A stretch of DNA of 18,465 nucleotides. Origin: a virus. Taxonomy: Duplodnaviria > Heunggongvirae > Uroviricota > Caudoviricetes. The DNA is taken from the IMG/VR virus record IMGVR_UViG_2731957841_000006, positions 1-18,465 of that record; one strand, written 5' to 3'. The translations under genes were made by a program, and so were the position numbers. Under the pieces are notes generated by a model. It was not told the DNA's origin and ran no database searches. It saw only the letters and a program-made list of their open reading frames with translations. Positions within the stretch are counted from its first letter, which is position 1, and the number at the start of each line of letters is the position of its first letter. This document shows, piece by piece, positions 1 to 11,635 of this stretch.

Positions 1-1254
1 ATGCTGGAACAAATGGGCATTGCCGCGAAGCAAGCCTCGTATAAATTAGCGCAACTCTCCAGCCGCGAAAAAAATCGCGTGCTGGAAAAAATCGCCGATG
101 AACTGGAAGCACAAAGCGAAATCATCCTCAACGCTAACGCCCAGGATGTTGCTGACGCGCGAGCCAATGGCCTTAGCGAAGCGATGCTTGACCGTCTGGC
201 ACTGACGCCCGCACGGCTGAAAGGCATTGCCGACGATGTACGTCAGGTGTGCAACCTCGCCGATCCGGTGGGGCAGGTAATCGATGGCGGCGTACTGGAC
301 AGCGGCCTGCGTCTTGAGCGTCGTCGCGTACCGCTGGGGGTTATTGGCGTGATTTATGAAGCGCGCCCGAACGTGACGGTTGATGTCGCTTCGCTGTGCC
401 TGAAAACCGGTAATGCGGTGATCCTGCGCGGTGGCAAAGAAACGTGTCGCACTAACGCTGCAACGGTGGCGGTGATTCAGGACGCCCTGAAATCCTGCGG
501 CTTACCGGCGGGTGCCGTGCAGGCGATTGATAATCCTGACCGTGCGCTGGTCAGTGAAATGCTGCGTATGGATAAATACATCGACATGCTGATCCCGCGT
601 GGTGGCGCTGGTTTGCATAAACTGTGCCGTGAACAGTCGACAATCCCGGTGATCACAGGTGGTATAGGCGTATGCCATATTTACGTTGATGAAAGTGTAG
701 AGATCGCTGAAGCATTAAAAGTGATCGTCAACGCGAAAACTCAGCGTCCGAGCACATGTAATACGGTTGAAACGTTGCTGGTGAATAAAAACATCGCCGA
801 TAGCTTCCTGCCCGCATTAAGCAAACAAATGGCGGAAAGCGGCGTGACATTACACGCAGATGCAGCTGCACTGGCGCAGTTGCAGGCAGGCCCTGCGAAG
901 GTGGTTGCTGTTAAAGCCGAAGAGTATGACGATGAGTTTCTGTCATTAGATTTGAACGTCAAAATCGTCAGCGATCTTGACGATGCCATCGCCCATATTC
1001 GTGAACACGGCACACAACACTCCGATGCGATCCTGACCCGCGATATGCGCAACGCCCAGCGTTTTGTTAACGAAGTGGATTCGTCCGCTGTTTACGTTAA
1101 CGCCTCTACGCGTTTTACCGACGGCGGCCAGTTTGGTCTGGGTGCGGAAGTGGCGGTAAGCACACAAAAACTCCACGCGCGTGGCCCAATGGGGCTGGAA
1201 GCACTGACCACTTACAAGTGGATCGGCATTGGTGATTACACCATTCGTGCGTAA
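1..1254 (+). CDS. proA: Gamma-glutamyl phosphate reductase (glutamate-5-semialdehyde dehydrogenase), full length 417 aa
   Basis: Translation matches the enterobacterial ProA sequence as I recall it end to end ([16 protein letters not shown]...GDYTIRA); the window begins at the start codon. Confidence 0.95.
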
Positions 1255-1368: not shown

Positions 1369-1444
1369 GCCGATATAGCTCAGTTGGTAGAGCAGCGCAT
1401 TCGTAATGCGAAGGTCGTAGGTTCGACTCCTATTATCGGCACCA
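1369..1444 (+). tRNA. thrW: tRNA-Thr (anticodon CGT), 76 nt with encoded CCA
   Basis: GCCGATATAGCTCAGTTGGTAGAGCAGCGCATTCGTAATGCGAAGGTCGTAGGTTCGACTCCTATTATCGGCACCA folds as a cloverleaf: 7-bp acceptor stem GCCGATA/TATCGGC, anticodon loop TTCGTAA, T-loop GGTTCGACTCC. Sits directly after proA and directly before the integrase gene. Confidence 0.9.
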
Positions 1445-3154: not shown

Positions 3155-3516
3155 TATGCTCCAGCCTCCGGTGCTTTTGGCATTACTGCCCAGTGAGTGA
3201 TATTGACGTTTTCAAGGTCCCCGACCTGAAATGTCCACTGCCATTCTCCGGTTTCTTTTTGTCCCCAGGTGTACCAGAGAGAACGCCAGCCAATTAGCCA
3301 GCCTTCTCCGTTAGCATCGAATAACAAAACACTTTCATTTGCTGGTGGCAGTTCAGTTGACACTGGTATTACTTTGTTTTCCTGTGCTGCACATTTAGCT
3401 TCAAGCGCATCGAATTTACGCACCAGGTATTCAGCATCCGTTTCATTCACTTTCAGATCTCGCGGTACACATCTCCCACGAAGAAACCCTTCCATTTCGA
3501 AAACATTCATGCGCAT
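3154..3516 (-). CDS. Hypothetical prophage early protein, 120 aa (alternative start at 3510)
   Basis: ORF in the same leftward operon; GGAG 8 nt upstream of the ATG at 3516; ATG at 3510 overlaps the upstream stop (ATGA). Confidence 0.6.
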   Translation of the reverse strand: MRMNVFEMEGFLRGRCVPRDLKVNETDAEYLVRKFDALEAKCAAQENKVIPVSTELPPANESVLLFDANGEGWLIGWRSLWYTWGQKETGEWQWTFQVGDLENVNITHWAVMPKAPEAGA

Positions 3517-4043
3517 TTGCGTAACTCCGATAATTCGTTAAAGCGTTCCATAAACATCCCGTAGGCATGGCCTGGAGCCAGTGGAATCACGTTGAACATC
3601 TCTGTTGCCGGGATACCTTCCAGCACAGGCCAGAAAGAGCCATCATCAAGCCCGAGATCGCGGCGTTCGGTTGCCAGCATAATGAGATCGGCATATTTCA
3701 CTGGCGTGCTCATAACAGGAGGTAACCCGTATTTCTCACGGATTACGGCGTCTATTTTTTCTTCCATCCGTTTATAGTCAGGAAGAAGTCGTTTCAGTGG
3801 TGCGGGGATGTCCTGGCAATATGCTTCTGTTGCATCATGCATTAAAGCTTCAAAAGCAAATTCCTGCGGCACCAGCTGGCTGCAAAGCACCGCATGTTGG
3901 GCGACACTGTAGAAGTGTGAAAGATGTCCTGCAAAGCGACAGATATTTGAAAGGGAAACCGCGATATCGTTAATAACGATGTCGTCTTTATTTATCCTGT
4001 CATAATAAAAATGCTTCCCGGAAAAAGTTTTAATAAATGACAT
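3507..4043 (-). CDS. HD-domain metal-dependent phosphohydrolase (YfdR-like, nucleotidase family), 178 aa
   Basis: HD motifs visible in translation (RFAGH...H...MHDATEAY); ATG at 4043 preceded by GGAGAA (the ORF track begins at a GTG 27 nt upstream); resembles prophage CPS-53 YfdR as recalled. Confidence 0.8.
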   Translation of the reverse strand: MSFIKTFSGKHFYYDRINKDDIVINDIAVSLSNICRFAGHLSHFYSVAQHAVLCSQLVPQEFAFEALMHDATEAYCQDIPAPLKRLLPDYKRMEEKIDAVIREKYGLPPVMSTPVKYADLIMLATERRDLGLDDGSFWPVLEGIPATEMFNVIPLAPGHAYGMFMERFNELSELRKCA

Positions 4044-4094
4044 TTTGTTCTCCACGTATATGCGCTGCACCGCGCTGAATTCCGGTAAAAGGAA

Positions 4095-4515
4095 GCCCTC
4101 ACCGTCCGGCGATTATTGAGTCAATTACATTTCCATAAATGCCCCCGTAGGGGCGGTTAGTTTCTCCACAAAACAGAGAAGAACACCTGCGGTGGCAGCC
4201 GCCCGGATGGATTGGGTTATGAGCCCGTCGTCCGGTGATGCTCTTCTCTGTTTTGTAAAAAGGACGGTACCAGCCGGAAGCAAGGGTACAAGCTGGTACC
4301 GCCAAGACTACACACAGCATAAAGTTGTGGTGCCGGGTGCCTCCCGGTGCCTGGCGAAGGTTGCACACCAGGCGGGTGGGTATCCACAGAAGGTCGACTG
4401 TCAGCCTCAACCTTAACCCGCGTGCGCTGAGCCGCATTCACCACAACGCTAAGGATTCTCTCTGGTTGAAAATACTTAGCTGTTATGTGCCTGCTTTTAG
4501 CCACATCAGGCGAGG
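4095..4515. other. GC-rich, highly structured non-coding island (candidate structured RNA or element remnant), class unknown
   Basis: About 400 bp much more GC-rich than its flanks; open in several frames on both strands but no translation looks protein-like; nested inverted repeats (e.g. ACAAAACAGAGAAGA ... TCTTCTCTGTTTTGT enclosing ~50 nt; GGTACCAGC ... GCTGGTACC). Confidence 0.3.
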
Positions 4516-4523
4516 TGGACCTA

Positions 4524-4573
4524 GTTATTCCCCAACAACAAGGATTCGGTTAATCTGGTTATCCCCAACAACG
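4524..4573 (+). repeat. Two direct repeats GTTAT(T)CCCCAACAAC about 34 bp apart, just upstream of the 144-aa ORF
   Basis: Seen directly: GTTATTCCCCAACAACA and GTTATCCCCAACAACG; candidate regulator binding sites. Confidence 0.4.
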
Positions 4574-4587
4574 CAAAAGGAAAAGAA

Positions 4588-5022
4588 ATGTCCGGTAATA
4601 TCTATACGCTGTACAAATCCCACTGTGAAAATGTTGGAAAGTATCGGGGCATTGAAATCAGTGGGGTAGTGTCATCAGTCGAAATAAGCAAAGTTGAATC
4701 AAGGGCAACATTACTTACTCTTTTGGACCTTGTCTTACATGAGCACCGGAAGAAATTCGGCACTCCCTATAATCAGTTGAATGGGAAAAAGGCTCTGGTT
4801 CACCTTATTCTGATGAAGCATCACTGGATGCCAAAACAGATTAATGAGATGAAATTTGATGAACTTCTTCTTTCAATTCAGGATGAACTCACACTTGATA
4901 AAATAAGCGTAACCGCCCAGAAATTTTTAGATTATCGAGACTGGAGATCACAAATTCATCACTTTGATGATTTTGACGAAAATGAATGGGATCCTAATTT
5001 GTCTGCACAATATCTAAAGTAA
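4588..5022 (+). CDS. Hypothetical protein, 144 aa (immunity-region moron candidate)
   Basis: 435-nt ORF in AT-rich DNA with AGGA 6 nt upstream of the ATG; no comparable ORF on the opposite strand; no domain recognised by me. Confidence 0.55.
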   Translation: MSGNIYTLYKSHCENVGKYRGIEISGVVSSVEISKVESRATLLTLLDLVLHEHRKKFGTPYNQLNGKKALVHLILMKHHWMPKQINEMKFDELLLSIQDELTLDKISVTAQKFLDYRDWRSQIHHFDDFDENEWDPNLSAQYLK

Positions 5023-5200
5023 CATCCTGTGATAAAACCGTGATTTCCTGATCCAGTTTTTTTAAGGAGTCTATTGTTTCCTGTCGATAAGACAGCACTT
5101 CACGAAGCTGGTTTATAGCTGCCAGCTTCTTTGTCATCCACTCATAAATTTCCTCATCTGTGTAGCCAGGCGCGACGATTTTGGGTTCTGTTTTGTGCAT
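4994..5200 (-). CDS. Hypothetical protein, 68 aa; first gene downstream of the predicted PL promoter
   Basis: ATG at 5200 preceded by GAGGAG at ~7 nt; 3' end overlaps the convergent 144-aa ORF by ~29 nt; not arginine-rich, so not an obvious N homologue. Confidence 0.5.
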   Translation of the reverse strand: MHKTEPKIVAPGYTDEEIYEWMTKKLAAINQLREVLSYRQETIDSLKKLDQEITVLSQDVTLDIVQTN

Positions 5201-5244
5201 TTCACATCTCCTCAAGTTATCAGTTACTTGTTGATGGGGACCAG

Positions 5245-5257
5245 ATTGTTAAAGAGC
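5245..5257 (-). promoter_or_regulatory. boxA-like antitermination element in the PL leader
   Basis: Leftward transcript reads GCUCUUUAACAAU, identical over 13 nt to the rrn boxA core as I recall it; a 5-bp stem-loop (CAAGU...ACUUG) follows before the RBS of the 68-aa gene. Confidence 0.45.
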
Positions 5258-5259
5258 TA

Positions 5260-5283
5260 AGCGTCCTGTAGGGCGCTTTTTTG
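5260..5283 (+). terminator. Candidate intrinsic terminator on the + strand
   Basis: AGCGUCC-UGUA-GGGCGCU stem-loop (one G.U pair) followed by UUUUUUGUUG on the + strand. Confidence 0.4.
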
Positions 5284-5367
5284 TTGCTAACGAATCATCC
5301 TGGACTTCATATGCCCCAGGCGGCTACTTCGTGGGCGTCCTGCCTGTTCGTTGTTTCGCTTGGGTAC

Positions 5368-5395
5368 ATTATGTATCTTAAAGGTACATTGTCAA
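5368..5395 (-). promoter_or_regulatory. PL-like early-left promoter with overlapping operator half-sites
   Basis: On the minus strand: TTGACA, 16-nt spacer, CATAAT; flanked by GGTACA/TGTACC motifs of the same type as the OR palindromes. Confidence 0.5.
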
Positions 5396-5398
5396 GTA

Positions 5399-5422
5399 TA
5401 AAAAAACCTGCCGAAGCAGGTT
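5399..5422 (-). terminator. Intrinsic terminator of the cI transcript
   Basis: Minus-strand RNA ACCUGC-UUCG-GCAGGU followed by UUUUUUUAUA, immediately downstream of the cI stop. Confidence 0.6.
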
Positions 5423-5434
5423 CATAAACATTGA

Positions 5435-6109
5435 TTAGGCTTTGATTTTGTATCTTCTTGGTTTTCCTGAGAAAATCACTGTACCAATTATAGAGCAATT
5501 ACCGTTGATCTTAATGTAAGGCTCAGGCCAGTTTGGGTTTAACGCTTTGAGATAACGCTGTGTCCCATCTTCTATCAACCTTTTGAAGGTGGTTTCACCT
5601 GTATCGTGCATCAATGCAATAACGTCGTCACCGTGGCAGGCAGGTACTTCAGGATCGACAAAAATCATGTCTCCCGGGCGGTACTCATCAATCATTGAAT
5701 CACCTATCACCCGCAAGATATAAGTCATTTCCCCACAGGGTACAGGGCAGGGATACGTTTCTGCTGTGCTCAAATCAACCTCAGAATATCCAACTTCTTT
5801 CCATGCTCCGGCCTGTACCCATGATATGACAGGGACTAATGTGATTTGTTTATTAGTGATTGAAACATCAGGTTTTTTTGTGATGTTCGTTGTCTGGTGT
5901 TCTTGATCGAGCCATCCGACAGGCAGGTCGAAACATTTTTCGATGTGTCGTGCCATGCTGTCACCGATATTTTTAGTAGCACCATCTCCCATAAACCTGC
6001 TGGTCTGGGTTGGCTCGCGATCAATCATAGTGGCAAAGGAAGAATTCCCGCCAACACCATCTCTCAGTTTTCTGGCGTTAGACCGCCGGATGTCATGGAT
6101 TGTTTTCAT
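5435..6109 (-). CDS. cI: CI-like prophage repressor, LexA/S24 peptidase family, 224 aa
   Basis: N-terminal HTH region plus C-terminal S24 autopeptidase signature (GDSM ... K); divergent from the cro-like gene across an operator-rich region; no SD upstream of the ATG (probably leaderless). Confidence 0.88.
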   Translation of the reverse strand: MKTIHDIRRSNARKLRDGVGGNSSFATMIDREPTQTSRFMGDGATKNIGDSMARHIEKCFDLPVGWLDQEHQTTNITKKPDVSITNKQITLVPVISWVQAGAWKEVGYSEVDLSTAETYPCPVPCGEMTYILRVIGDSMIDEYRPGDMIFVDPEVPACHGDDVIALMHDTGETTFKRLIEDGTQRYLKALNPNWPEPYIKINGNCSIIGTVIFSGKPRRYKIKA

Positions 6110-6123
6110 AACGAAATTAAAAC

Positions 6124-6192
6124 CCTTGTACCGTTAAGGTACAAGTATCTTGAAGGTTCATTTCAATCATGTAATATGTACACCGGAGGTAC
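6124..6192. promoter_or_regulatory. OR/PR region: operator palindromes and rightward promoter
   Basis: Perfect 21-bp palindrome CTTGTACCGTTAAGGTACAAG; second site TGTACACCGGAGGTACA overlapping the cro RBS; candidate PR TTGAAG, 16-nt spacer, TAATAT at ~6149-6176. Confidence 0.55.
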
Positions 6193-6199
6193 ATATTGT

Positions 6200-6400
6200 A
6201 TGAAAGCGTATTGGGACTCTTTAACCAAAGAACAGCAGGGCGAGTTGGCCGGAAAAGTTGGCTCAACACCTGGCTACTTACGGCTGGTTTTCAATGGCTA
6301 TAAAAAAGCCAGTTTTGTGCTGGCTAAAAAACTTGAGCAATGCACGTCAGGTGCAATTACGAAATCTGACTTAAGACCGGATATCTATCCGAAAGATTAG
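6200..6400 (+). CDS. Cro-like DNA-binding regulator (YdaS-like), 66 aa
   Basis: ATG with GGAGG ~10 nt upstream; small HTH-type protein (MKAYWDSLTKEQQGELAGKVGSTPGYLRLV...) divergent from cI. Confidence 0.8.
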   Translation: MKAYWDSLTKEQQGELAGKVGSTPGYLRLVFNGYKKASFVLAKKLEQCTSGAITKSDLRPDIYPKD

Positions 6401-6431
6401 CAGAACACTTTCAATTTTTAACCACAGAACG

Positions 6432-6995
6432 ATGAGGCTAATCGTGGGTAAGCATCACTGGAAAATAGAAAAACAGCCTGAGTGGTACGTGAAAGCTGTC
6501 AGAAAAACTATCGCGGCGTTGCCGGGTGGTTACGCTGAAGCGGCTGACTGGCTCGATGTAACAGAAAACGCTTTATTCAACCGCCTTCGTGCAGATGGCG
6601 ATCAGATTTTCCCGCTGGGATGGGCAATGGTTTTACAGCGTGCTGGTGGCACTCACTTCATTGCTGATGCTGTGGCGCAGTCTGCAAATGGCGTCTTTGT
6701 GTCTCTTCCTGACGTCGAGGATGTGGACAACGCCGATATCAACCAACGCCTGCTGGAGGTCATTGAACAGATCGGCAGTTATTCAAAACAGATTCGTTCA
6801 GCAATTGAAGACGGTGTAGTGGAACCGCATGAGAAGACAGCAATTAACGACGAGTTGTACCTCTCAATTTCGAAGCTGCAGGAGCATGCAGCACTGGTCT
6901 ACAAAATTTTTTGCATTTCAGAAAGTAATGACGCCCGCGAGTGTGCAGCTCCGGGCGCCGTGGCGTGTCGTGACTGTGGAGAAACTAACGCATGA
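6432..6995 (+). CDS. YdaT-like prophage regulatory protein (CII/CP76-like family), 187 aa
   Basis: ORF immediately after the cro-like gene, as in the Rac ydaS-ydaT arrangement; family assignment from memory. Confidence 0.65.
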
Positions 6996-7330
6996 ACAGT
7001 TTAACAACACACTACCGTCGCTCGCAACTGATTGCGCTTCCTGTACCGGGTGGAAAAGCGAAGGTGGAGTATTGCTATGCAGTGAATGTACCAGGTGACA
7101 GGGAAATTGTAACCCACAGCTTTGCAGAGTGGGCTGTGGGGGATTTCAACCGGCAGAAGGAGGCAGTCCTTTGCGACAAGTTAACCGCTGGTTCAAAGAT
7201 CACTACGGAGTGCCCGTCAGAGTCATTCGTTGGGAGCCGGAAACACAACGGGTTATCTACCTCCGTGAAGGCTATGAGCATGAGTGCTTCAGCCCGCTCG
7301 AACAGTTTCGTCGTAAATTCAGGGAAATAG
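6992..7330 (+). CDS. Hypothetical protein, 112 aa (frame uncertain, see findings)
   Basis: ATG overlaps the YdaT-like stop (ATGA); stop lies 9 nt before the replication-gene start; C-terminal half is low-complexity. Confidence 0.4.
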
Positions 7331-7350
7331 AGGTCGGTCATGAGCACTAA
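7171..7350 (+). CDS. Candidate small protein, ~59 aa, in the alternative frame (TTG start)
   Basis: AGGAGG 7 nt upstream of an in-frame TTG; protein-like translation (...[55 protein letters not shown]); its stop overlaps the next gene's start. Confidence 0.3.
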
Positions 7351-8293
7351 ATTAACCGGCTATGTATGGGATGGTTGCGCAGCGTCAGGCATGAAATTAT
7401 CCAGCGTGGCAATTATGGCCCGCCTGGCTGATTTCAGTAATGACGAAGGTGTGTGCTGGCCATCAATTGAAACCATTGCCCGCCAGATTGGCGCGGGGAT
7501 GAGTACCGTCAGAACGGCTATCGCACGGCTGGAAGCAGAAGGCTGGTTAACGCGTAAGGCGCGTCGCCAGGGTAACCGCAATGCGTCGAATGTTTATCAG
7601 CTTAACGTTGCGAAGCTTCAGGCAGCGGCATTTTCTCAACTGTCAGATTCTGACCCGTCAAAATCTGACGTATCAAAATCTGACCCGTCAAAATTTGATG
7701 CGTCGAAATCTGGCAAAAAAGCGGGTTTTCACCCGTCAGAATCTGGCGGGGATCCGTCAGTAAAATCAAAACATGATCCGTCAGATAAAAAACCTTCTCG
7801 TCCGGACGCTTCGCAACCGGACACGCAGACGGCTGAACAGGATTTTTTAACTCGCCATCCTGATGCGGTTGTATTCAGCCCTAAAAAGCGCCAGTGGGGA
7901 ACGCAGGATGATTTGACCTGCGCACAGTGGCTCTGGAAAAAAATCATTGCCCTGTACGAGCAGGCCGCCGAATGTGACGGCGAGGTGGTTCGTCCCAAAG
8001 AACCGAACTGGACAGCATGGGCAAACGAAATTCGCCTGATGTGTGTGCAGGATGGTCGTACTCACAAACAAATCTGCGAGATGTACAGCCGCGTCAGCCG
8101 CGATCCGTTCTGGTGCCGTAACGTGCTCAGCCCGTCGAAGTTGCGGGAAAAATGGGATGAGCTTTCCCTGCGCTTATCGCCGTCCGTCAGCACGCACACA
8201 GAAAAACGTGAAGAGCGGTGCTTACGGAAAAGCAGCAAGCGCGCTGTATCGGGTGATGAATGGTATCTGTCAGGGAATTACGTGGGGGCTTAA
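7340..8293 (+). CDS. Phage replication initiation protein (O-like, N-terminal winged-helix DNA-binding domain), 317 aa
   Basis: AGAGG 6 nt upstream of the ATG; N-terminal HTH-like region; DNA iterons inside the gene as in lambdoid O genes. Confidence 0.75.
7643..7790 (+). repeat. Iteron array (candidate ori) inside the replication gene
   Basis: Five tandem 15-bp units (TCAAAATCTGACCCG-like) at 7643-7717 encoding SDPSK-type peptide repeats, then an A-rich tract and three further CCGTCAG motifs. Confidence 0.6.
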
Positions 8294-8403
8294 TGACGAC
8301 GTTAACTCAGTGTCAGCAGCAGGTGCTGGATATGCTGATTTCTTATCAGAAAGAACGTGGCTTCCCGCCAACCAATCAGGAGGTGGCAACCATGCTGGGA
8401 TAA
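8293..8403 (+). pseudogene. 36-codon remnant of a gene with a LexA-like N-terminal DNA-binding domain, truncated at the deletion junction
   Basis: ATG overlaps the replication-gene stop; [36 protein letters not shown] aligns with the LexA N-terminus (LTARQQEVFDLI...GMPPTRAEIAQRLG) as recalled, then stops where tail-fibre homology begins. Confidence 0.4.
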
Positions 8404-8405
8404 CC

Positions 8406-11051
8406 CATGCGACTGATGCTGCAGGCTCAGCGCGTGCAGCCAGCACGTCAGCCGGACAGGCCGCGACGTCGGCTCAGGAGGCGTCTTCCAGCGCAGGAAC
8501 GGCATCAACAAAGGCCACTGAAGCATCAAAAAGTGCTGCCGCTGCAGAGTCCTCAAAAAGCGCGGCGGCCACCAGTGCCGGTGCGGCGAAAACGTCAGAA
8601 ACGAATGCCGCAGCGTCACAACAATCAGCAGCCACTTCTGCATCCACTGCGACGACGAAAGCGTCAGAAGCCGCCACTTCAGCCCGGGATGCGGCGGCCT
8701 CCAAAGAGGCGGCAAAATCATCAGAAACGAACGCCTCCACAAGCGCCAGCAGTGCAGCCTCCTCGGCAACGGCGGCAGGAAATTCCGTGAAGGCGGCAAA
8801 AACGTCCGAGACGAATGCTAAGTCTTCTGAAACGGCAGCGGAACAGAGCGCCTCAGCTGCGGCAGACTCTGAGACAGCAGCTGCATCATCGGCCCGTGAG
8901 GCGTCCATTAAGGCAGAGGAGGCAGCAGTCAGTGCCACCGCCGCCGGAAAATCGGCAGAAAGCGCCGCATCATCCGCTTCAACAGCCACAACGAAGGCTG
9001 GCGAAGCCACTGAACAGGCCAGCGCAGCAGCGAGGTCTGCTTCCGCAGCGAAGACATCCGAAACGAACGCGAAAGCGTCGGAAACCAGCGCAGAATCCTC
9101 AAAAACGGCTGCCGCATCGTCCGCCAGTTCGGCGGCGTCATCGGCATCATCGGCGTCTGCTTCAAAAGATGAGGCGACCAGACAGGCGTCAGCAGCGAGG
9201 GGCAGCGCCACGACGGCATCCACGAAGGCGACAGAGGCTGCTGGCAGTGCGGCAGCGGCAGCACAGAGCAAAAGTACGGCAGAATCCGCAGCAACGCGCG
9301 CCGAGACAGCAGCAAAACGGGCAGAGGATATTGCATCCGCCGTGGCGCTTGAGGATGCGAGCACGACGAAAAAGGGGATAGTACAGCTCAGTAGTGCGAC
9401 CAACAGCACTTCCGAGTCACTGGCGGCAACACCAAAAGCCGTTAAGGCCGCGTATGACCTGGCTAACGGGAAATACACCGCACAGGATGCAACGACAGCA
9501 CAGAAAGGGATAATCCAGCTAAGCAGCGCGACCAACAGCACGTCTGAAACGCTTGCCGCGACACCAAAGGCAGTAAAAGCAGCCAATGACAATGCTGAGA
9601 AACGTCTGCAGAAAGATCAGAACGGTGCGGATATCCCTGGCAAAGATACCTTTACGAAAAATATTGGTGCCTGCCGTGCCTTCGGTGGGTCAGTAAGCAC
9701 AACAACAGGAAACTGGACGACTGCACAGTTTATCGAGTGGCTGGATTCTCAGGGAGCATTTAACCATCCATACTGGATGTGCAAGGGTTCCTGGTCTTAT
9801 GGCAATAATAAAATCATTACTGATACTGACTGCGGTAATATTCATCTCGCCGGAGCTGTCATTGAAGTAATGGGGATAAAGTCAGCGATGACGATCCGCA
9901 TTACCACACCGACCACCTCCACTGGTGGTGGAACAACTAACGCCCAGTTTACCTATATTAATCACGGAACAGATTATTCACCTGGCTGGCGAAGGGACTA
10001 TAACTCCAGAAATAAGCCAACGGCATCAGAGATCGGGGCGTTACCGTCAGGTGGAACAGCAGTATCATCAGTTAATCTGGCTTCAAAAGGTCGGGTAACC
10101 GCGCTGACAGACAATACGCAGGGGGCAGCAGGTCTTGAGTTATACGAGGTGTATAACAACGGATATCCAACAGCGTATGGAAATATCATTCACCTGAAAG
10201 GGATGACAGCCGTTGGCGAAGGTGAGTTACTCATCGGCTGGAGTGGTACAAGCGGTGCTCATGCTCCGGCATTTATTCGTTCACGACGGGATACGACCGA
10301 CGCAAACTGGTCGCCGTGGGCGCAGCTTTACACCTCGGCTCATCCTCCTGCAGAGTTTTATCCAGTCGGTGCACCAATCCCGTGGCCATCAGATACCGTT
10401 CCGTCTGGCTATGCCCTGATGCAGGGGCAGACTTTTGACAAATCTGCATACCCGAAACTTGCAGTTGCTTATCCGTCAGGCGTGATCCCTGATATGCGTG
10501 GCTGGACGATTAAGGGCAAGCCCGCCAGTGGTCGGGCCGTATTATCTCAGGAACAGGACGGCATTAAATCGCACACCCACAGCGCCAGCGCATCCAGTAC
10601 GGATTTGGGGACGAAAACCACATCGTCGTTTGATTACGGAACCAAATCCACGAATAACACCGGGGCGCATACCCATAGTATTAGCGGGACCGCAAATAGT
10701 GCCGGTGCGCACCAACACAAGAGTTCCGGTGCATTTGGTGGCACGAACACGAGCATTTTCCCTAATGGTTATACCGCGATTTCAAATCTAAGCGCGGGGA
10801 TTATGAGCACAACAAGCGGTAGTGGCCAGACTCGTAATGCAGGGAAGACATCATCAGATGGTGCTCATACCCACTCGCTGTCCGGCACTGCTGCAAGCGC
10901 AGGCGCACATGCACATACTGTCGGTATTGGTGCTCATACGCACTCCGTTGCGATTGGTTCACATGGACACACCATCACCGTTAACGCTGCTGGTAACGCG
11001 GAAAACACCGTCAAAAACATCGCATTTAACTATATTGTGAGGCTTGCATAA
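8406..11051 (+). pseudogene. stf: Side tail fibre protein (Stf-like), 5'-truncated; lacks the N-terminal tail-attachment region and its own start codon
   Basis: Ala/Ser/Thr-rich repeat region, two copies of the tail-fibre repeat KGI(V/I)[11 protein letters not shown](S/T)[11 protein letters not shown], and His-rich GAHTHS-type C-terminal motifs; similarity to Rac StfR (from memory) begins mid-protein; the ORF's upstream 120 codons overlap the replication gene in another frame. Confidence 0.7.
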
Positions 11052-11635
11052 TGGCATTCAGAATGAGTGAACAACCACGGACCATAAAAATTTATAATCT
11101 GCTGGCCGGAACTAATGAATTTATTGGTGAAGGTGATGCATATATTCCGCCTCATACAGGTCTGCCAGCAAACAGTACCGATATTGCACCGCCAGATATT
11201 CCGGCTGGCTTCGTGGCTGTTTTCAACAGTGATGAGTCATCGTGGCATCTCGTTGAAGATCATCGGGGTAAAACGGTTTATGACGTGGCTTCCGGCGACG
11301 CGTTATTTATTTCTGAACTCGGTCCGTTACCGGAAAATGTTACCTGGTTATCGCCGGAAGGGGAGTTTCAGAAGTGGAACGGCACAGCCTGGGTGAAGGA
11401 TACGGAAGCAGAAAAACTGTTCCGGATCCGGGAGGCGGAAGAAACAAAAAACAACCTGATGCAGGTAGCCAGTGAGCATATTGCGCCGCTTCAGGATGCT
11501 GCAGATCTGGAAATTGCAACGGAGGAAGAAACCTCGTTGCTGGAAGCCTGGAAGAAGTATCGGGTGTTGCTGAACCGTGTTGATACATCAACTGCACCTG
11601 ATATTGAGTGGCCAGAAGAACCAGACACCGTGTAA
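11051..11635 (+). CDS. tfa: Tail fibre assembly protein (Tfa), 194 aa
   Basis: Start overlaps the stf stop (TAATG); typical Tfa size, position and sequence character. Confidence 0.85.

Follow-up and report, generated by a model that had tools for sequence, protein, structure and literature searches.

A conserved rrn-type boxA in the early leftward leader of an SfIV-like prophage without a recognizable N protein

The window analyzed here, a stretch of 18,465 nucleotides from a Caudoviricetes record (IMGVR_UViG_2731957841_000006), is, judging from its sequence, a deleted SfIV-like prophage at the thrW site (Table 1). Beyond proA and a tRNA, the window from ~1399 onward shares 98-99% identity with Shigella phage SfIV (int, xis, yfdT, yfdR, and others), apart from one internal deletion and a break after ~8400. 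Some ~1.3 kb of SfIV (25953-27254, the yfdQ/yfdP region) is missing at window positions 4151-4154, and at ~8214-8402 the replication module jumps to a 1002-aa tail-fiber-like open reading frame (ORF; 8043-11051). Given these missing segments and this jump, the prophage is considered a deleted, probably defective remnant. A strong Rfam match to IS009 (225.9 bits versus a gathering score of 117) was also observed at 11394-11592 (+), within an ORF (11051-11635) that adjoins the tail-fiber gene. The immunity region comprises a LexA-family repressor, cro, and a CII-like gene; its repressor region was found in 2170 of 5426 complete Escherichia coli genomes.

Table 1. Features of the window that bear on the early leftward leader and its surroundings
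Feature	Position	Strand	Details
proA	1-1254		Encoded in the window
tRNA	1369-1441		
STnc100-like stretch of the PL transcript	4254-4477	-	Ends in a long hairpin, then a U-run
Convergent accessory gene	4588-5022	+	144 aa; PHROG 5286, "ECs1072 family"; antisense to PL transcription
First PL gene	4994-5200	-	68 aa, acidic; PHROG 1744; annotated WP_000549623.1
Weak AU-rich stem	5213-5230	-	CAAGU-N8-ACUUG; five pairs, 8-nt loop
rrn-type boxA	5245-5257	-	DNA GCTCTTTAACAAT; GCUCUUUAACAAU in the PL transcript
Intrinsic terminator	5259-5284	+	AAGCGTCC-TGTA-GGGCGCTT, then TTTTTT; hairpin 5278-5259
Element A, conserved structured RNA	5284-5353	-	First 70 nt of the PL transcript
PL-type sigma-70 promoter	5368-5395	-	-35 TTGACA (5395-5390), 16-nt spacer, -10 CATAAT (5373-5368)
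Intrinsic terminator of cI (ymfK)	5404-5423	-	Directly upstream of PL; putative rho-independent terminator in the SfV annotation
LexA-family repressor ymfK/cI	6109-5435	-	Immunity region
cro/ymfT	6200-6400		Immunity region
CII-like ymfL			Immunity region

The PL-type promoter agrees with the sigma-70 consensus at 11/12 positions and has a predicted start near 5361; GGTACAT operator-like repeats bracket it (5363, 5383) and recur at PR (6138, 6188), and SfV, SfIV, and PhiR29 have this same promoter past their cI gene. The cI terminator immediately upstream, the near-consensus sequence, and the repeats shared with PR together make the assignment as PL, already predicted in the first-pass annotation, a reasonable one. 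The first gene on the predicted transcript was taken to be real because its 68-aa product matches PHROG 1744 over its full length (E = 6e-35) and has a homologue of 36% identity at the equivalent position in another prophage (L032). With 8 K+R against 12 D+E (net charge about -4), the protein is indeed acidic and free of an arginine-rich motif (ARM), as had been noted from the sequence; a PDB sequence search with it was uninformative. The PL transcript is translatable across this ORF only, after which it runs antisense through the convergent accessory gene and then through 4477-4254, before reaching yfdR (start ~4070), xis, and int; the untranslatable stretch amounts to ~900 nt and begins soon after the boxA. 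The segment at 4254-4477 resembles the Rfam sRNA family STnc100 (43.4 bits, below the gathering score of 47; E = 2.7e-7) and is probably a noncoding RNA within the PL operon, since RefSeq marks the ORF there (4099-4437) as a frameshifted pseudogene. The same region overlaps a weak DicF-like match. A C/G scan along the PL RNA for rut-like C-rich, G-poor windows gave no strong signal.

The boxA lies ~105 nt into the predicted PL transcript. The 13/13 match to the rrn boxA that had been noted in the first reading was borne out against a fetched E. coli rrn leader, which reads GCCGCUGAGAAAAAGCGAAGCGGC-AC-U-GCUCUUUAACAAU-UUAUCAG. Within the window, GCTCTTTAACAAT is the sole exact match to the 12-nt core, and GCUCUUUAACA (5257-5247, minus strand) agrees on the transcribed strand with the gammaproteobacterial consensus GYUCUUUAANA. 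As DNA, this consensus (GYTCTTTAANA, taken from PMC5725501) has one match in the window and one in the whole 39.8-kb SfIV genome, in each case the boxA; by a rough estimate, chance would supply ~3e-4 consensus matches per 160-nt leader on one strand. A candidate second boxA downstream of PR was rejected: the 2-mismatch match at 6216 falls inside cro and fails the consensus.

The surroundings of the boxA do not have the anatomy of a nut site. The locus had been read initially as nut-like, with a short stem-loop following the boxA, yet the only stem in that position, probably the one intended, is the weak AU-rich stem of Table 1: shuffles fold at least as well (z = +0.96), the Shine-Dalgarno sequence GAGGAG (5213-5208) overlaps it, and relatives that diverge right after the boxA do not have it. 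Its AU-rich pairing and 8-nt loop also differ from the GC stem and GNRA-like pentaloop that a lambda-type boxB presents 3' of boxA. The convincing hairpin is instead 5' of the boxA, at 5278-5259, outside the interval 5205-5260 with which the first-pass annotation was concerned; the order is hairpin and then boxA, as in rrn. No boxC-like GU-rich element was found 3' of the boxA, where the window has CUGGUCCCCAUCAAC and relatives have CUGGAUAUCC; the fetched rrn leader carries CUGUGUGGGCACUCG further downstream of its boxA. That there is no obvious N protein was upheld: a scan for ARM proteins among the ORFs of the window and of full SfIV gave only spurious ORFs inside other genes, N-type Pfam families had no match among ten proteins scanned from the window and relatives, and no antiterminator was found with Pfam, PADLOC, or PHROGs. 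The SfIV paper names only Q.

The hairpin 5' of the boxA has the properties of an intrinsic terminator on the plus strand, with 8 pairs (including G.U) and a 4-nt loop followed by TTTTTTGTT. In the PL RNA its complement is weakened, the G.U becoming a C.A mismatch and the flanking run consisting of A rather than U, and folding gave -15.6 kcal/mol for a 60-nt plus-strand segment versus -7.5 for a 55-nt PL-strand segment. The PL-RNA hairpin ends at 5259, leaving a single nucleotide (5258) between it and the boxA. Relatives retain the strand asymmetry with varying plus-strand loops (UUCG, GAAA, and others), and the hairpin comes 10-30 nt past the stop codon of a convergent ORF (150-260 aa; PHROG 1244 in most cases) in PhiR29, Klebsiella phage Kp4882-1, and many IMG/VR contigs; asymmetry and position together show that the hairpin terminates a gene read in the direction of PL. 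The fit is looser in the window, where the terminator stands 237 nt past the stop of the convergent gene, with the 68-aa gene between them. A second terminator-like hairpin (5104-5129, plus strand; 9 pairs, weak T-run) was observed inside the 68-aa ORF, which is on the other strand, 80 nt past the stop of the convergent gene; it may be the actual terminator of that gene, with 5259-5284 then a backstop.

Upstream of this module, the PL transcript begins with a conserved structured RNA, here called element A, which in the window scores 94.4 bits with the covariance model. Stem P1 closes the structure, the P2 region is invariant, and P3 is a hairpin that covaries and whose conserved loop reads GGCRUAYGAA; covariation is strong in two stems. 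In alignment A1 (34 distinct sequences), 9/13 predicted pairs had compensatory changes on both sides, and 96.2% of cells were paired versus 72.7% in shuffles (0/500 reached the observed value) and 23-46% in slid controls. Rfam searches (permissive E-values over 3500-7500; gathering thresholds over ten loci) returned no match to element A, to the boxA, or to its hairpin, and none to HK022 put either. Element A follows at least 10 different promoter/operator regions, and 51 phage records contain it, among them SfII, SfV, ST64B, ZF40, and mEp237. It was also found in the T5-like Providencia phage PR1 (70 bits), with a boxA ~10 nt past the closing stem; T5 itself has none. In the window and in SfIV, it is single copy (model R1) and restricted to the PL side, with none downstream of PR; an apparent pair of copies in phage 118970_sal3 was set aside, as that record appears to hold the phage sequence twice. 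Among complete E. coli genomes, 1531 of 5426 (~28%) have the leader, and 937 carry at least 80% of the 141-nt query (leader plus boxA). Since most copies of element A are not accompanied by a boxA, the two are considered separable modules. Two further modules were observed: an element B (GCGCAGCAGGTTTAAACGTTCCGCCAGCCTGGCGACAAGGGCA, with a CGCCAG/CUGGCG hairpin), not in the window, which in many PL leaders without a boxA comes after element A and immediately before the ribosome-binding site of the first gene (loci L130 [2575-2625], L134, L136, L007, and others), and a third, GGCGTATGGCACATGCGTCGTTAGCGGTCTG..., in the leaders of Ayreon, cdtI, and L456. The PL leaders of this phage group look modular.

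Conservation of the boxA was assessed in leaders sampled in ways that did not fix it, by anchoring either on the upstream element A or on the hairpin. The element-A-anchored sample took one genome per species and used a loose degenerate pattern, by which 22 of 120 loci were genuine; a consensus boxA was found 87-133 nt downstream in 6 of the 22, as GCTCTTTAACAAT (E. coli, Xenorhabdus), GCTCTTTAAAAAT (Scandinavium, Enterobacter), or GCTCTTTAACAAC (E. bugandensis). In all module-type leaders sampled, which represent dozens of mosaic contexts from E. coli, Shigella, Klebsiella, Enterobacter, and Scandinavium, the boxA core was invariant, and variation was limited to the -1 base (A/U/C) and the consensus N position (C/A); around this core the flanks, the hairpin loop, the upstream promoters, and the downstream genes all vary. 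The critical positions are thus seen to be under purifying selection across homologues, which supports counting the element as a boxA, and the conservation in related prophages on which its initial reading had been made to depend is present in every module-type leader sampled. Mosaic boundaries delimit the module on both sides: the SfV leader is common up to the base before the hairpin-boxA module and continues without it, and the PhiR29 leader is common to 4 nt beyond the boxA and then differs. A boxA in the same orientation, without a plus-strand terminator or a nearby convergent gene, was found in Xenorhabdus ehlersii (L205), in contig L016, and in the pre-early leader of PR1, all three of which are missing the hairpin; conversely, many phages have a hairpin of this type between unrelated flanks and no boxA. 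None of the 110 leaders listed has a boxA in reverse orientation. Chance as the origin of the boxA is excluded by its conservation, the mosaic boundaries, the terminator-free occurrences, and the orientation. In most relatives (e.g., L005, L022, and L038) the boxA is followed by CTGGATATCC, with the palindrome GGATATCC, kept across otherwise unrelated downstream sequences; the window at 5243-5234 has CTGGTCCCC in its place, and T7 shares CTGG.

Leaders with and without a boxA differ in what lies beyond. Among 113 leaders with distinct downstream sequence, which are not phylogenetically independent, 28 of the 30 with a boxA, versus 4 of the 83 without, had within 300 nt the end of a convergent ORF that was 140 aa or longer (Fisher p = 5e-20). 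Many of the contexts share PHROG 1244 or PHROG 5286 cassettes, and the association is also expected from hitchhiking with the 3' end of a cassette. Typically, a leader without a boxA leads directly to a Shine-Dalgarno sequence and a gene of the same direction; the exceptions are the ST64B, Ayreon, and cdtI leaders, which cross long untranslated stretches or convergent genes without a boxA.

We give about an even chance to the reading that the boxA is a working, protective anti-Rho signal that would be bound by NusB/NusE(S10) in the early leftward transcript of an N-less SfIV-like prophage. From sequence identity, conservation, orientation, context, and the published behavior of rrn boxA, we infer both Nus binding and the anti-Rho effect, and reliance on host NusB/NusE alone, one of the options offered in the first-pass annotation, stands as the best-supported reading. 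Upon loss of the repressor, RNA polymerase would start at PL and transcribe the structured 5' element, then the weakened complement of the convergent terminator, and then the boxA; NusB-S10 would bind the boxA and, with NusA, NusG, and SuhB, hold the RNA in a loop against the polymerase, as happens in rrn operons and in the CRISPR arrays of Salmonella, and elongation would become resistant to Rho. Such resistance would be needed because the PL transcript is untranslatable for ~900 nt, antisense to 4588-5022 and through 4477-4254, before yfdR, xis, and int. Since the terminator abuts the boxA, each on its own strand, an accessory gene entering the operon in the direction opposite to PL would bring or keep its own polarity suppressor. 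Complexes of the rrn type are weak against intrinsic terminators, and a hairpin and U-run at ~4254-4280 remains for PL transcription to pass, which counts against the protective reading, as do the translated 68-aa ORF that begins 44 nt past the boxA in the window, the lack of a strong rut-like signal in the C/G scan, the shared cassettes behind the convergent-gene association, and the boxA-less leaders of ST64B, Ayreon, and cdtI. The rrn-type BoxA binds NusB ~17-fold more tightly than does the nutL boxA, and NusB:NusE binds it at 8 nM (PMC2800207).

Known systems offer partial parallels for such a role. The E. coli rrn leader shares the identical 13-nt boxA, untranslated RNA downstream, a presumed independence of any phage factor, and, arguably, a hairpin immediately 5' of the boxA (a gap of 1-3 nt here, depending on how the stem is drawn, versus 3 nt in rrn). 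In contrast to the rrn leader, there is no boxC-like GU-rich element here, the hairpin is a convergent terminator read in weakened form from the complementary strand, with some relatives lacking it, and the boxA lies ~105 nt past the start of a phage early promoter under repressor control, with another structured RNA before it. The closest functional analogue of the proposed role is the BoxA of CRISPR arrays in Salmonella and others (Stringer et al. 2020, PMC7665894), which is likewise a stand-alone consensus boxA in the leader of a long untranslated RNA from a horizontally acquired locus and which blocks premature Rho termination of that RNA (PMC7665894); protection was shown experimentally there and is proposed by analogy here, where the untranslated stretch is antisense to a convergent gene. 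For the boxA itself, the sequence precedent is the T7 early leader (L478, 813-829), in which the 17-mer GCTCTTTAACAATCTGG is identical to the boxA region of the window and lies 63 nt after the A3 start and before the start codon of gene 0.3 (925). The T7 early operon (promoters A1-A3) is also read by host polymerase and also has no N protein; unlike the prophage, T7 is virulent and lacks a convergent gene, element A, and a terminator beside the boxA. The literature searched contained no functional study of this early-leader boxA of T7.

The boxA might instead be half of a composite site, in which element A acts together with an unrecognized phage or host protein (compare boxB-N) or binds RNA polymerase directly (compare put), so that this partner and not the Nus factors alone gives processive antitermination, intrinsic terminators included; we consider this unlikely, although it deserves to be weighed. 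In its favor, PL leaders of at least 10 immunity types start at +1 with element A, whose structure has covariation support, element A precedes a boxA by 8-133 nt in 6 of 22 species-level loci as well as in a T5-like virulent phage, and a leader RNA in the same place serves HK022, which is also N-less (PMC9378689). However, in one sample of 110 distinct leaders with element A, ~105 were without a boxA, and Kp4882-1, L016, and T7 have a boxA without element A, so neither needs the other; moreover, no candidate protein partner was found. The comparison with HK022, suggested at the outset, yielded a likeness of position and not of sequence. Both are N-less lambdoid phages with a structured RNA from the 5' end of the PL transcript, but put acts without a boxA, and element A has a closing stem (a three-way-junction layout) and no copy past PR in the window or SfIV. 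Homology of element A to put was rejected: putL shares only short bits (ACGAAC, CAGGAUGA), and model R1 finds nothing in the HK022 immunity region, missing both putL and putR. A put-like or stabilizing function of element A may still be kept as a lead, by analogy.

A negative control of the suhB type, in which the Nus complex would block translation of the 68-aa ORF and the resulting uncoupling would lead to Rho termination, so that PL is damped and not protected, seems to us a poor prospect. At suhB, where a consensus boxA also lies <50 nt from a start codon, Nus factors acting from a boxA close upstream of an ORF repress rather than protect: BoxA represses translation and causes Rho termination, working with 100 nt or less between boxA and Shine-Dalgarno sequence (Baniulyte et al. 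2017, PMC5725501). Here the Shine-Dalgarno sequence of the 68-aa gene is 31 nt past the boxA. In the supplementary list of Baniulyte et al., GCTCTTTAACA is given 31 nt upstream of hypothetical genes of E. coli UMN026 and E. fergusonii; 31 nt is also exactly how far the boxA is from an alternative TTG start at 5215. Nevertheless, most homologous contexts, unlike suhB, have no co-directional ORF after the boxA, the next feature being the stop codon of the convergent gene, and a device to repress a single ORF would not persist once that ORF is replaced, as in PhiR29 and Kp4882-1. The context data (convergent genes) thus favor the protective reading over the suhB-type one, which applies at most to leaders with the 68-aa gene.

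It is improbable that the boxA is a mere passenger of the plus-strand terminator, that is, part of the 3' untranslated end of a convergent cassette (stop codon, ~15 nt, hairpin, T-run) with no role in the PL RNA, its identity being fortuitous or serving the plus-strand mRNA. The hairpin is optimized for the plus strand (G.U pairs, UUCG/GAAA loops in relatives, a T-run always there), and the boxA nearly always travels with a convergent gene. Yet a terminator-proximal spacer has no reason to be a 13/13 rrn boxA that varies only at tolerated positions, the hairpin type is also found with unrelated flanks and no boxA in many phages, and in Xenorhabdus, L016, PR1, and T7 a boxA reads in the direction of PL or the early promoter with neither hairpin nor convergent gene beside it. 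That the site is a vestigial lambda-type nutL whose boxB and N gene were lost, an option left standing by the first reading, is scarcely credible: the position before the first gene of a PL leader and the use of boxA with host Nus factors recall the nutL of lambda, P22, and phage 21, and the prophage of the window is itself a deleted remnant, but here there is no boxB after the boxA and no N/ARM protein was found, the boxA is of the high-affinity rrn type and not the weaker lambda type, its core is invariant across genera while flanks, loop, and downstream genes vary, and the same module is carried by the intact inducible phages SfIV, PhiR29, and Kati.

The boxA site of the window is probably that of ECUMN_0866 (31 nt upstream), which appears without comment among 407 putative boxAs (PMC5725501). 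The contexts of boxA named in a 2025 review are limited to rrn, lambda N, suhB, and hisG. In the literature searched, neither a PL boxA in an N-less lambdoid phage, nor the pairing of such a boxA with a convergent terminator, nor element A was found to have been described. The textbook answers to the processivity of lambdoid early operons are the N/nut system of lambda and the put sites of HK022. To our knowledge, phages of the SfV/SfIV/e14 type have neither N/nut nor put, and the question of processivity has not been addressed for them. We tentatively suggest, as a proposal that may well prove wrong, that the early leaders of this large group of N-less enterobacterial temperate phages are sets of exchangeable RNA modules that replace N: element A, and a host-hijacking rrn-type boxA fused to a strand-asymmetric terminator, so that counter-inserted accessory genes cause no polarity. 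The two elements are defined (~13-70 nt each) and open to direct mutation. If the boxA indeed acts as the suggested anti-Rho signal, this would be the first temperate-phage early operon shown to depend on the host rrn-type Nus complex alone; the short list of nonribosomal BoxA targets (suhB, CRISPR arrays) would grow, and the presence of convergent accessory genes inside an early operon whose xis and int are still expressed would be accounted for.
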